Below, one piece after another: positions 5,234 through 42,823 of a stretch of 64,000 nt of DNA. Made by a program: the position numbers and the translations under genes. The stretch lies in contig MU004231.1 in the NCBI GenBank assembly GCA_010405405.1, forward strand, positions 2,908,401 through 2,972,400. Reading direction: 5' to 3'. The number at the start of each line of letters is the position of its first letter. Position 1 is the first letter of the stretch. Source of the DNA: Microthyrium microscopicum (lineage: Eukaryota). A model generated the notes under the pieces. That model was given only the letters and a program-made list of their open reading frames with translations. It searched no databases and was not told the DNA's origin.

Positions 5234-5305
5234 GGACTGTTGGCGCAATGGTAGCGCGTTGGTTTTCGGCACCAAAGGTTGCGCGTTCGAGCCGCGTGCA
5301 GTCCT
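5234..5305 (+). tRNA. tRNA-Arg, anticodon TCG, intronless
   Basis: Cloverleaf: acceptor GGACTGT/GCAGTCC, D arm GCGC-AATGGTA-GCGC, anticodon stem TTGGT/ACCAA with loop TT-TCG-GC, T arm GCGCG-TTCGAGC-CGCGT. A T10 Pol III terminator follows at 5315-5324. Confidence 0.92.
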
Positions 5306-37935: not shown

Positions 37936-38298
37936 CTCTCTTCAATAAACTCCCAACGCTCTGGGATTTGGCATGAACTGCTCTTTATCTCCTTACGCTT
38001 GATGTATCGTTTCGCATAACATATTTAGTTATCGATGCCAGAGTAAAACCAACAATAAGGAATCATTGAAGGCTGGAAGAAAGCGCGACTGTTGGCCTTC
38101 GGAGAAATGGCAATAACGGATGACGCGACATCGTGATAGTTGCTTTTTCCCTTCCCCACCTGTTAGCCAAGACAACATAAACTTCATCAAACTTTTTCCC
38201 ATCTCAACAGGATTGAAACGTTTCCTCTAATCATCAGTTTACGTTATTCGTTGATTTATACTACAACAATATCTTTTTCTTACTCATCCTTCGATACC

Positions 38299-40586
38299 AT
38301 GGCTCACGATTCTGAGCTCATGAAAGGCAAGCCCGTTGAGGACAACAACGATCCGACGCTGCACTCCCCCGAAGATGGCGACAGCATGACTTCAGATGAA
38401 CGATACTTGGTAAGATCAACAACATGAGCAGCAACAAGTCAAGAATTCAGATACAGCCTTCCACCATATACGCGCAGATAGCAGGTAAGTATAGCCTCCG
38501 GTCGAAGCTAATTCATTGGTGATGATTCTATCTCTGGCGAGAGAGAATTTTGCGTGAACAGCTTTGATCTCAAATTGGCAACGCGGGTGTCCCTAATTGC
38601 CGTCTCTTGTCATGAGAGCGGCGATATGGGTCTGAGATTATACCGCATGAACTTGATCGCTATCATGAGCGCGTAAGGAGTAGCTATGAGATCTTTCGAC
38701 AACTTCTGTTCCCATCACGGTGAGAGATATTCTAACAACCAGGTAGCAATCTCTCGGCTACAAGCAAGTAAGTGATTACGAGAGATTGTACCTGATTGCG
38801 CTAATTGAGAAGCTCCTTCATCGACAATGGAGTCTTTTTGAAAGCTTCGCTGCAAGTTTTGGTGCGTTGCGAAAAGACTACTTTCATCGGACAGTTTCTT
38901 ACTGATGTAGCTGCACTTTACTCCGTCGGAGGTGTTCGAGTGACTTTCACTATTGGTGTCGGTGCTGGTGGACCGGCCGCCTACTGGCACGTCTATTTCT
39001 ACTTCGGCGAACTCTTCTTGCTAATAACAGAACAGGTCAAGCTATGTTGTTACTTGTTTTTTCGTAACTATCACAGCAGCCGTGCTGGCAGAGATCTGTT
39101 CTGCACTTCCTGCTGCAGGATCTATCTACTTGTTTGTATTCTGCGATCCTCGAAAAGTCAGCTTCTGACTAGGTTATAGCTGGGCAGCTGAGGCTGGTGG
39201 CCCCAAATATGGCAGACTCTTCGGTTTCATTGTTGCTTGGTGGAGCACCACTGCATGGACAACCTTTGTGGCCTCAAATAGCCAAGCGGCAGCCAACTTT
39301 CTCCTATCGGAAATCTCGGTCTTCAATCTGGACTTCTCAACTGATGTTAACGACATCAAGTTTCGCGCCGTCCAATGGATTGTAGCAGAAGTGATCCTGT
39401 TCATCAGTATCGGCACAAACTATTTTGGACCAAAGCTGTACAAATGGATCTTCAAGGCGTCTGTCGGTATCATTTTGCTGGATTTCCTTCTGAACATCAT
39501 CTGGCTGCCAATTGCTGTATCAAAAACTTATGGATTTCAGGATGCCAAATTTGTGTTCACCGAAACTCGCAATGAAACTGGAGCTCCACCGGTCTGGAAT
39601 TGGATGCTTTCCTATTATGTTACTGCCGGCATCTTGGTTGGCTTCGAAGCAAGCGGACATATATCTGAAGAGACCAAGAACGCAAGTATCACTTCCGCCC
39701 GAGGTATCTTTACTTCCGCAGTTGCCTCTGCTTTAATAGGGTTTCCGTTGGTGATCTTGTTCCTTTTCAGTATGCCAAGTTTGGACATCATCTATGGCTT
39801 GGGTGCTCCCCAACCATTCGTTCAGCTTTATGCTATGTCAATGGGACGTGGAGGACATATCTTCATGAATATTGTCTGCATAGCTGGGCTCATGCTCGTA
39901 AGTTTGTCCTAGTTTCCAGGTACGCGTAGCTCATCTTGAACAGAACACCTCTATTGCGGGTATTGCGGCATCCCGACTCATCTGGGCTGTTGCCAGAGAC
40001 GGAGTCTTGCCATGCTCAGGCTGGATTTCGAAAGTATCAGACAAGAAGGAGCCCAAAAATGCTGTAACGGTCATGTTGATTGTTGCGGCACTCCTCCTGT
40101 GCACAATTCTACCCTCTCCAGTAGCCTTTACGTCTTTGGTCAGCGCAGCTGGCGTGCCAACTATCACTGCATATGCTTTGATATCATGTAAGGGTCTTCC
40201 AAACTCTCAACAACCGATACTAACCTTCTCAGTTGGTCGAACTTTCCTGACACCTCACGGCTTCAAGAATGCTCGTTGGTCACTAGGCCGCTGGTCACGA
40301 CCATTGAATTTCATCGCCTTCGTCTGGAACCTATATTTGGCTGCCATCCTATTCTCGCCACTTTACTTCCCGGTGACTGGAGCAACACTCAATTGTAGGC
40401 CAAGGCTGTGCAACTATAACTATTGCCGAGATGTGCTAACGTCGTCTAGATTCGCCTGTCATCTTTGGTGCCATAACCATTTTTGGCTTCATTTCCTGGC
40501 TGGTTGTTCCAGATGATAAGTGGCTGCCATCTGAGCGCATTGGACGACTCCAGAAGACTGTTGAAGCTGATCCTCACCTCGATTGA
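38299..40586 (+). CDS. APC-superfamily (amino acid/GABA/choline-type) permease, probable Thi9-like thiamine or thiamine-precursor transporter; multi-exon
   Basis: Spliced motifs LGYKQ, LAEICSALPAAGSIY, GFEASGHISEETKNA, SRLIWAVARDGVLP and WSLGRWS. A TPP aptamer lies in intron 1. Confidence 0.88.
38566..38693 (+). promoter_or_regulatory. TPP (thiamine pyrophosphate) riboswitch aptamer within intron 1 (38410-38746)
   Basis: Conserved core GCGGGTG...CTGAGATTATACCGC-ATGAACTTGAT-CGCT-ATCATG-AGCG-CGTAAGGA. P2 GCGG/CCGC; P3 CCC..ATTGCCG..TCTC/GAGA..CGGCGAT..GGG; P5 CGCT/AGCG; P1 TGGCAAC/GTAGCTA extended by GATCTCA/TGAGATC. Confidence 0.92.
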
Positions 40587-40832
40587 GCTATAATCACCAA
40601 CTTGAGTCTAGAATCGGCTCACTCCATCAATTGGCACAAAACAATACACAAACATAGACACAGAAAGTACATGCGGCTCTGTAGCTTCGGCGGATTTCGG
40701 AGGTTCACCTCCCACACATACACGTTTTGCTTTCCTTATAATGCTTCCTTTTCACAACAAATTGATACTCCACACTCTTCACACCCTCTAAAAACTACTA
40801 TACATCCTCAGCAATAGAATAGATTCGTAATT

Positions 40833-42392
40833 CTAATTTGATGGAGTCCACTTCTCCTTGTCTGGTATCTTATTGTACACGTGCTCTCCATGCTTGTAGA
40901 AGACGACCTCATCGCCAACGCGAATCTCTTTATGAAGGCTATCCGCATACGCAATCGCCATCATCCCGAGAATTCCACTACTAGCGCCAGGATCAATTCT
41001 CCATTCTTTGTTGAGATAACTGAGTGGCTGGAATACATCATCGTCGCGCACACCAAGAAGCGGGTCGTTGTTGGGCATTTTGCATCGGGGTATTCTACAT
41101 GGTAGAGCAAACACTATAGGCTCTGGCGGTTCCGATGACTTCTGATCCTCGGCGTCGCTGGTCGATCTTCCCTGGATGGCTAGTCTCTTCATGTGTACTT
41201 CCGAAAATGCCGTAGGCCCGGAGATGTAGATATTCGATCGAAATCGTCGTGAATCAGGTCTATAAGATTTTCCTTTCTTCTTGGCTACCTCCTGTACCTT
41301 TTTCTCGACTTCGTATATGCTAGACATATTCTGTACTGATATAGGGTAGGCATCCTGTAGTCCAACCTTGGTCTGAAATCCTATATCTTCCACACTCGGT
41401 GCATTTTTGTACAATTCTCGTTCAAACCCATCCCGCACTCGGAAAAGAGTAACAGAGTTCGAGATCCCCAGTGTATACGCGAGTTTGCGGAGGATTATTG
41501 GATCAATCTCGCTAGCCATGTCCCAAGATTCTGGAAATTCCTTCCATATCCGCATCTGGTCCAGTTGATACGCCTTCTCCTTGATGCGTTCTTCACAGGG
41601 GACGAGAGGGACGCGAAACTCCACCATATTCCCGACTCTGCCTTTTGATCGACGTCTGAGGAGCATTTCGCTGATAAAGGCGCGGATGCCGGTGCGGTTG
41701 TATTCATAGTCGGACGTGAATGGGAAGCGCACGATGATACAGCCACCGTTTTTCACCCAAATGCTGTCTTCATCGTAGTCTTCTGCGTCGGGATCAGGGA
41801 TCCAGAGCTCCGTTTGAACTAGAGCGAGTTGCGCGGACTCGCGTTGGGTGATGAAATGCCAGGAGTGTTCGGTATTGCCGTCCAGGTCAGGCAGTTTGCT
41901 CTCGAGATGAGCAAATGAGAACAAGCGATCATGAGCTAGTCCAAGGGGCGTGACTGTGGCAGAATCAACTTCAATGGGAGCTGTCGATTTGATGGGATGG
42001 AGGTAGAGAGCCTCGATTCTTCCTTCAAGTCCGGTATTTGCGTACTCCTTTGATATTGAATTTTCCAGATCACTTTCGGATGGTTTTGGAAATGAAGCAG
42101 ATCGAGGGACCTCCTTATATCCTAAAGTGAAGGTCTCGTCGCTAAGATTCCGTTCTGCTTTCCTTCCAAGTCGTCGGCATCCTTCTGGTCGTTTTGGTGG
42201 TCCCAGGTCCTGTCGTACGCCAGATATGATGTCCCAAAGGAATAACCAAGTCCATCTGTAGATAAATGGAATGCCAATTACTAAGAAGACCATTCCTGCA
42301 GACATCCAATAAAAAGCAGTTGGTAATTCAGCATCGTCGTCTAGAGCCTGGAGACGCTCCTTTATGGGCGCATTGTGGGCGGGACACGACAT
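40833..42392 (-). CDS. MOSC-domain (mARC-like, molybdenum cofactor-associated) protein with N-terminal TM segment
   Basis: IEALYLHPIKS, GLAHDRLFSFA, RRFRSNIYISG, CRIPRCKMPN and IRVGD motifs. Confidence 0.85.
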   Translation of the reverse strand: MSCPAHNAPIKERLQALDDDAELPTAFYWMSAGMVFLVIGIPFIYRWTWLFLWDIISGVRQDLGPPKRPEGCRRLGRKAERNLSDETFTLGYKEVPRSASFPKPSESDLENSISKEYANTGLEGRIEALYLHPIKSTAPIEVDSATVTPLGLAHDRLFSFAHLESKLPDLDGNTEHSWHFITQRESAQLALVQTELWIPDPDAEDYDEDSIWVKNGGCIIVRFPFTSDYEYNRTGIRAFISEMLLRRRSKGRVGNMVEFRVPLVPCEERIKEKAYQLDQMRIWKEFPESWDMASEIDPIILRKLAYTLGISNSVTLFRVRDGFERELYKNAPSVEDIGFQTKVGLQDAYPISVQNMSSIYEVEKKVQEVAKKKGKSYRPDSRRFRSNIYISGPTAFSEVHMKRLAIQGRSTSDAEDQKSSEPPEPIVFALPCRIPRCKMPNNDPLLGVRDDDVFQPLSYLNKEWRIDPGASSGILGMMAIAYADSLHKEIRVGDEVVFYKHGEHVYNKIPDKEKWTPSN

Positions 42393-42823
42393 GCTGCTGG
42401 CAACAACGGGTGCCAGACCAGTTGAAGAATAATTACTAGGAGGATCTTTCAGAAAGAAAGGAAAGAGGCCAGCTCATGATGAAAAAAGACCAGCAATTTA
42501 GTGTTTGGCGGTTATTCAGGAGTAGCAGACTGCAGTGGGTTGGCGGAGGTAGCTGACGTTTCAGACCTCAGTCTCGTTTAGCCTCTCCAAACCAACCCGC
42601 TGTCACCTTTCAGCTTTGCGACATCCACCACTCAGCATCAATCGACGCGATTTATCTGTCGCCAACGCGTCTTCGAGTACGGCCTTCACGTTGATTGCCT
42701 CATCACCGTACAATGTTTGGCAGCTTGCGGTGTGCATCTTCCAAGGCAGAATCTCGAGACCTCGAATGAATGCGATGCAGGGGTCAACCACCTCGAATTT
42801 CCTGAGCAGACTGCCGTTCCCAA

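Follow-up and report, generated by a model that had tools for sequence, protein, structure and literature searches.

A 64,000-nucleotide stretch of the genome of Microthyrium microscopicum, a Dothideomycete (Ascomycota), carries a gene for an amino acid permease whose first coding intron contains a thiamine pyrophosphate (TPP) riboswitch aptamer and two 5' splice sites. The stretch (contig MU004231.1, positions 2,908,401 to 2,972,400 of the forward strand) is referred to below as the window, and its features are collected in Table 1. To our knowledge, the TPP riboswitch is the only riboswitch class known in eukaryotes. The first coding intron of this thi9-like transporter gene probably holds a splicing switch built on a TPP riboswitch of the NMT1 type, an arrangement termed "Type III".

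Host gene and first intron

The host gene of the aptamer encodes an APC-family amino acid permease, as in the thi9 or amino-acid-transporter riboswitch class; two of its exons match the Pfam family AA_permease_2 (PF13520; E 1.4e-17 and 1.4e-12). Its largest exon matches, at 100% identity, a database protein with the source name "amino acid transporter [Microthyrium microscopicum]". Homologs from Aspergillus and Talaromyces, with 61-62% identity over a 239-residue large-exon query (window 39181-39897), carry the source name "Thiamine transporter thi9". Judged by these source names, the gene is likely thiamine-transporter-like, or thi9-like.

Table 1. Features of the window; positions are counted from its first nucleotide.
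Feature	Position	Strand	Basis
thi9-like amino acid permease gene with nine exons, from start to stop codon	38299..40586	+	Pfam, homologs, contig joints
Exon 1, 37 codons, phase 0, ATG at 38299, end ...SDERYL	38299..38409	+	sequence
Intron 1, 337 nt, houses the proposed switch, between codons 37 and 38	38410..38746	+	acceptor 38745-46 confirmed by contig joint
Donor 1, TTG/GTAAGA, productive 5' splice site	38410..38415	+	sequence; join 38409^38747 restores conserved protein
In-frame TGA, first premature stop on donor 2 use or intron retention	38425..38427	+	
Anti-aptamer strand, includes donor 2	38469..38490	+	pairs with 38651-38675 in both minimum free energy (MFE) folds
Second in-frame stop, TAG, between the donors; absent from the initial annotation	38479..38481	+	
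Donor 2, CAG/GTAAGT, alternative 5' splice site	38485..38490	+	38484^38747 joint in an X1 contig
TPP riboswitch aptamer, 29-nt insertion in P3	38573..38696	+	Rfam RF00059
Aptamer stems P4/P5 (pyrophosphate-sensor arm), putative switching sequence	38651..38677	+	Rfam alignment, pairs checked
Likely branch site, TTCTAAC	38730..38736	+	sequence reading only
Exon 2 (QSLGYKQ)	38747..38767	+	sequence, contigs, homologs
tRNA-Arg gene, anticodon TCG	5234-5305	+	Rfam, 56.3 bits
Convergent neighbour, 546-aa open frame with MOSC N-terminal beta-barrel domain	40836-42473	-	E 5.3e-10

The productive join across the intron follows from homologous proteins, which read DE[RQ][YL]L-RALGYKQ-SLHRQW across this position; the join is therefore 38409^38747, as an initial annotation of the sequence had assumed. 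The same annotation had placed the two donors and the TGA between them, and both sequence reading and a script confirmed all three positions. Donor 2 is the sole GT[AG]NG[TC] hexamer within the intron.

The aptamer was recognized by Rfam RF00059 over the full model (1-105); its score of 54.7 bits (E 5.8e-8) lies just above the gathering score of 54.3, a margin kept narrow by the 29-nt insertion in P3. TPP binding by this aptamer is a prediction. In the Rfam alignment, P4 comprises 38652-55/38674-77 and P5 38658-61/38668-71, and nearly the entire P4/P5 hairpin is complementary to the strand 38469-38490 that includes donor 2.

The consensus of fungal branch sites is CTAAC, which occurs close to the intron's 3' end. 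Two AG dinucleotides lie 7 and 11 nt past the putative branch A (38735). Splicing at the first (cAG, 38741-42), which may sit too near the branch point, would shift exon 2 out of frame, while the second (tAG, 38745-46) is in frame and is the one chosen in the contig described below.

Transcript evidence for the second donor

Transcript evidence was obtained from the contigs of one public run (X1), which holds a fraction of 0.69 of the sampled words of 38200-40700 and whose kind ("RNA?") is a guess. The contigs skip eight stretches of 45-262 nt, which are all eight introns of the gene, and they are therefore derived from spliced RNA. One of them joins 38484^38747 (listed as 38482→38745; moving the cut two places rightward gives GT..AG ends). 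Donor 2 and the acceptor at 38746 are therefore used in vivo, as the initial annotation had predicted. A second contig is unbroken from 38455 to 38767, i.e. the intron is retained downstream of donor 2, an outcome that the annotation had singled out for measurement, and a third (contig 1) is unbroken from 38302 to 38484 and crosses donor 1. The join 38409^38747 is not among the listed X1 contigs; since contigs can document presence but not absence, this does not argue against the use of donor 1.

The message spliced at donor 2 keeps 75 intron bases. Its reading ends at the TGA at 38425 after 42 codons, and the reading frame of exon 2 meets the TAG one codon upstream of the join. Because of these in-frame stops, the donor-2 isoform cannot encode the transporter.

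Pairing between the second donor and the aptamer

TACGCGC (38469-75) and GCGCGTA (38669-75) are exact complements, as are GATAGC (38477-82) and GCTATC (38659-64), in agreement with the initial annotation. The annotation had further proposed that P4/P5 masks donor 2 in the ligand-free RNA, and this pairing is indeed part of the MFE folds of both 38400-38760 (-103.5 kcal/mol) and 38460-38700 (-77.2 kcal/mol). Three helices are common to the two folds (38469-75:38669-75, 38477-82:38659-64 and 38486-90:38651-55), and the aptamer stems P2 and P3 remain folded in both. The third helix had been drawn as GGTAAGT paired with 38651-38658 through one bulge and one G-U pair. The pairing holds, but the bulge does not: the computed folds contain an unbulged helix of five pairs, U38486-U38490 with A38651-G38655, one of them U.G. 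G38484 and G38485 are paired about half of the time in the computed ensemble. Without ligand, the donor 2 bases 38486-90 have probabilities of being unpaired of 0.04-0.14, compared with 0.55-0.69 for donor 1.

The duplex of 38465-94 with 38648-78 has an energy of -22.6 kcal/mol. This energy was reached by 49 of the 25,588 30-nt windows in the whole 64 kb on both strands, a count that includes the site itself and at least six windows merely antisense to the target. It was matched in 2 of 5000 mononucleotide shuffles and, with dinucleotide shuffles and slightly different flanks, in 0 of 500, 0 of 300 and 3 of 400. The duplex is exceptional by these measures, but the whole 241-nt fold is not unusually stable (z -1.74; 10 of 200 shuffles equally stable). 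Enforcing P4/P5 costs 6.8 kcal/mol (-77.2 versus -70.4 kcal/mol). TPP affinities are nanomolar, and ligand binding could pay this cost. In the window, P4/P5 is thus complementary to the proximal, alternative 5' splice site, which is the relation that characterizes masking of the NMT1/THI4 type.

Conservation of the intron layout among relatives

Metagenome contigs were scanned with an alignment of the large exon, which returned 80 loci; loci were picked by motif patterns matching the aptamer core, P2 and the end of exon 1, which may miss or mis-assign some. In 36 loci (35 metagenomic loci and the window), donor 1 and the aptamer lie in one intron before xxLGYKQ. Exactly one GT[AG][ATC]GT lies between donor 1 and the aptamer in 35 of the 36, compared with 0.19 per region expected from the background rate. 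In every one of the 35, at least one in-frame stop precedes the second donor, and in 30 the donor-to-donor distance is not a multiple of three. The sole exception, L014 (2610-2878), has only GTAAGA in place of a GT[AG][ATC]GT second donor; 423 nt separate its donor 1 from the CTGAGA core, including an internally repetitive insertion of about 200 nt.

The aptamer itself varies in a compensated manner. P5 occurs among the relatives as CGCT/AGCG, CGCA/TGCG, CGTC/GACG and CACT/AGTG, four compensated forms by eye, which indicates that the aptamer fold is under selection. P2 changes, also by eye, from GCGG/CCGC to GCCG/CGGC in L001, L002 and L008. On the Rfam scale, L051 alone among 20 related loci passed the gathering score (59.9 bits), and L010, L028 and L029 fall below it yet clearly carry the aptamer. 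The gathering score is too strict for forms with a long P3, and the aptamers were therefore located by sequence patterns.

L001, L002 and L008 are also the closest protein relatives (about 80% identity) and, like L044 and L064, have TTGAGA in place of the CTGAGA core. This TTGAGA group has a compensated P2 (GCCGG/ACGGC) and a shifted P5 (GGCAT..ATGCG), and it keeps a strong second donor with a complementary flank.

The replaced core in some close relatives, the marginal Rfam score of the window and a published passage speculating on loss of function in thi9 riboswitches would all suit a decaying aptamer relic, with the two donors reflecting unregulated alternative splicing. Such decay is hardly credible for an aptamer whose intron position is shared by at least 36 loci and whose P5 and P2 both show compensated changes. 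In addition, distant paralogs of the LGYKP type (44-60% identity) have a short intron without an aptamer at the same position; the long intron is therefore not neutral baggage.

Masking complementarity among relatives

The loci were collapsed to 21 representative introns, in each of which a 62-nt flank of donor 2 was compared with the intron's own P4/P5 against 400 dinucleotide shuffles. An earlier version of the test, with 48 nt upstream of donor 2 only, gave no signal for 7 of the 17 unique loci. Because the complementary segment of some clades is located 3' of donor 2, the flank was widened to 62 nt spanning both sides. The flank beats 95% of the shuffles in 11 of the 21 (the window, L001, L002, L007, L008, L012, L017, L023, L028, L029 and L050). 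When P4/P5 were permuted among the 21, 272 of 50,000 permutations reached a summed energy as low as that observed (29 of 20,000 in an earlier set of 17), a test that ignores shared ancestry.

The partners differ between clades. In the window and in the L022/L023 group, the loop reads GCTATC and G[AG]TAG[CA] lies upstream of donor 2, and L012 has CGCGCTC opposite GAGCGCG. In the L003/L028 group, P5 is CGCAT…ATGCG with GCGCATA immediately 5' of donor 2, and a TCAAGT on the 3' side lies opposite ACTTGA. As read from these pairs, the putative masking helix is partly co-varying, with changes that are compensatory in kind in about half of the representatives. Helix spacing varies too widely from locus to locus for the anti-aptamer helices to be aligned reliably. 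Further, the 5' strand of P4 (window 38650-38655) is AACTTG in 36 of 36 loci, compared with AACCUG in the Rfam consensus, and its other side is UAAG/GAAG. The ACUU in this strand makes it complementary to the AAGU/GAGU of the second donor.

The other ten representatives lack complementarity between donor 2 and P4/P5 beyond that of shuffles: L020, L022 and L034 are borderline, and L005, L010, L056, L058, L067, L071 and, less clearly, L006 give no signal. Masking is therefore either not universal in the family or lies outside the tested 62 nt in these introns.

These ten introns invite the main rival explanation, modelled on Candida DUR31, in which the riboswitch would govern whether donor 1 can be used (splicing versus retention), donor 2 would be a constitutive minor site or decoy, and the complementarity would be secondary. 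The X1 contig with the retained intron, found beside the donor-2 join, is consistent with it, as are passages on DUR31 itself, in which thiamine raised the unspliced RNA and the second donor was used with and without thiamine (PMC5997356). We regard this explanation as unlikely, since 35 of 36 loci keep exactly one strong second donor, which is hard to account for if the site has no function, and the complementarity is strong in the window and co-varies in 11 of the 21 representatives. No bound-state structure occluding donor 1 was found, the P4/P5-enforced fold being uninformative here.

A long-range design resembling Neurospora crassa NCU01977 (Type II) would instead pair sequence near donor 1 with the 3' side of the aptamer or intron in the absence of TPP, thereby bringing donor 1 near the acceptor. 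The MFE fold of 38400-38760 does extend the masking helix outward (38426-38468 with about 38676-38711), and the donor-1 flank beats 95% of shuffles against the 3' part of the intron in 4 of the 21 representatives, the window being borderline (16 of 300). However, 17 of the 21 give no such signal, the complementarity found involves P4/P5 and not P1', and the 337-nt intron with one alternative donor differs from the defining 650-900 nt with several. A Type II switch at this locus is thus very improbable.

One relative deserves separate mention. In L017 (about 2605-2634), exon 1 itself ends in a stretch (…GACGCTGATGAGAGGTATTTG/GTAAGA) with strong complementarity to the P5 region (-21.8 kcal/mol), and its donor-1 flank is matched against the 3' part of the intron by 0 of 300 shuffles. 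Possibly L017 represents a variant whose donor 1 is involved in the switch as well.

Gene model

The public protein model P0001 (543 aa, 100% identical in the large exon) differs from the gene structure given here over window 38768-39179. It retains intron 2 (VSDYERLYLIALIE), reads into the fourth intron and omits the exon 39036-39131. The X1 contigs and the homologs P0003/P0004 disagree with this model and begin exon 3 at 38813. Further introns, placed by X1 contigs and homologs, are 38862-38910, 39132-39179, 39898-39943, 40188-40232 and 40395-40449. The fourth intron, 38987-39035, is an apparent GC-AG intron (tactg/GCACGT ... aacAG/g). Its joint in the contig is given as 38985->39035 (ends GG..CA, two letters ambiguous), and a shift by one place gives GC..AG. 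The shifted joint restores ...PAAYW-SSYVV..., matching the homologs.

Relation to known fungal riboswitches

In NMT1 and THI4, P4/P5 nucleotides block a second 5' splice site without TPP, according to the passages on this mechanism in Li and Breaker (2013; PMC3597705) and Donovan et al. (2018; PMC5997356). The window resembles the Neurospora crassa NMT1 (THI5) and THI4 systems (Cheah et al., 2007, as described in portions of PMC5997356 and PMC3597705) in that P4/P5 would mask the proximal donor without TPP. In those accounts, TPP unmasks the proximal site and the distal donor gives the productive mRNA, as is proposed for the window. Whereas NMT1/THI4 regulation works through an intron in the 5' untranslated region and upstream open reading frames, the intron of the window interrupts the open reading frame at codon 37/38. 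The unproductive isoform of the window has in-frame stops, and repression would act through them.

This combination has been described before. Type III of Mukherjee et al. (2018; PMC5882874) has an internal intron of 200-400 nt, two donors S1/S2 separated by an in-frame stop, and one acceptor downstream of the aptamer, and was stated as not observed experimentally. The window shows all four features (a 337-nt coding intron, two donors, stops between them and one acceptor). The initial annotation had likened the locus to NMT1 masking moved into the coding region and acting through a premature stop codon; that likeness stands, but the novelty it implied does not, as this is Type III. Data S1 of the same study lists 291 rows, 80 of them Type III. 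Its 16 amino-acid/GABA transporter rows, 9 of which are Type III, are all from Basidiomycota, and 0 of its 52 Dothideomycete rows is an amino-acid transporter, whereas the present case comes from a Dothideomycete.

Other sources extend the taxonomic range. According to passages of a 2024 survey (PMC11683625), the amino-acid-transporter group is found in Ascomycota and Type III is the second most common mode. The thi9 or TPPsw-AA class, as outlined there, shares with the window a TPP aptamer and an APC-family permease related to Schizosaccharomyces pombe Thi9. The survey and citations of Moldovan et al. (2018) report this class, in the portions available, from Taphrinomycotina, Pezizomycotina and Basidiomycetes. 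Similarly, a passage of Donovan et al. (PMC5997356), citing Moldovan et al. (2018), notes that Pezizomycotina Thi9 orthologs also carry riboswitches. A passage in a 2022 paper describes thi9 riboswitches as lacking experimental validation. In the literature searched, where Moldovan et al. (2018) is represented by citing papers only, no experimental study of the thi9 class was found.

Riboswitch introns within coding sequences of thiamine-related transporters are also described, in portions of PMC3597705 and PMC5997356, for N. crassa NCU01977 and Candida DUR31. As in the window, downstream donors or retention lead there to premature stops, and both cases are experimentally validated. In contrast to the window, NCU01977 and DUR31 are presented as members of another transporter family (SSS/urea type). 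NCU01977 further differs in its 650-900-nt intron with several donors and in a long-range alpha-alpha' pairing with P1' in place of P4/P5 masking.

Proposed mechanism

Under the NMT1-type reading, the 3' arm of the aptamer (P4/P5, 38651-38675) would pair with 38469-38490 when TPP is absent and bury the proximal donor at 38485. The spliceosome would then take the distal donor at 38410, excise 337 nt and join ...DERYL to QSLGYKQ..., giving the full-length transporter. With TPP bound, P4/P5 would close inside the aptamer and release the anti-aptamer strand. The freed consensus donor at 38485 would out-compete donor 1, or the intron would be retained, and the resulting message, with TGA 38425 and TAG 38479 in frame, would yield a 42-residue peptide only. 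By analogy with NMT1/THI4, we infer that the switch depends on thiamine, that it runs in this direction and that the message with premature stops would undergo nonsense-mediated decay.

Several points weigh against this reading. The Rfam score of the aptamer exceeds the threshold by 0.4 bits only, ten of the 21 representative introns carry no detectable mask, and the permutation result is uncorrected for shared ancestry. A published in-silico study suggests, in the passage concerned, that thi9 riboswitches might have lost function. Finally, ligand dependence and direction are drawn from NMT1/THI4 and not from the locus itself.

Significance

The window is a well-supported new example of a design already described for fungi and not a new mechanism, and the understanding of how fungal TPP riboswitches work is unchanged by it. 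Its modest addition is threefold: an explicit, putatively masking and partly co-varying helix in the thi9 class, a junction that documents splicing from the second donor, and a gene model that corrects the public one for the transporter. It is also a compact example of a coding-region riboswitch, with a 337-nt intron, one alternative donor and a 22-nt anti-aptamer strand. Amino-acid-permease riboswitches occur in Dothideomycetes, where one survey table does not list them. Because Type III and the thi9 class are described in the literature consulted as untested predictions, the window and the 35 related introns form a ready set for reporter assays.

For the family as a whole, it is quite possible, although we would not yet call it probable, that riboswitches of the thi9 class function as a coding-region form of the NMT1 mask, with an aptamer adapted to its own splice site, AACTTG with its ACUU being a built-in complement of the donor. 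If so, the join 38484^38747 would be the first transcript-level evidence for Type III, so far only predicted, and the half of the relatives in which no mask is detected would imply that one intron layout is operated by two or more different RNA mechanisms.

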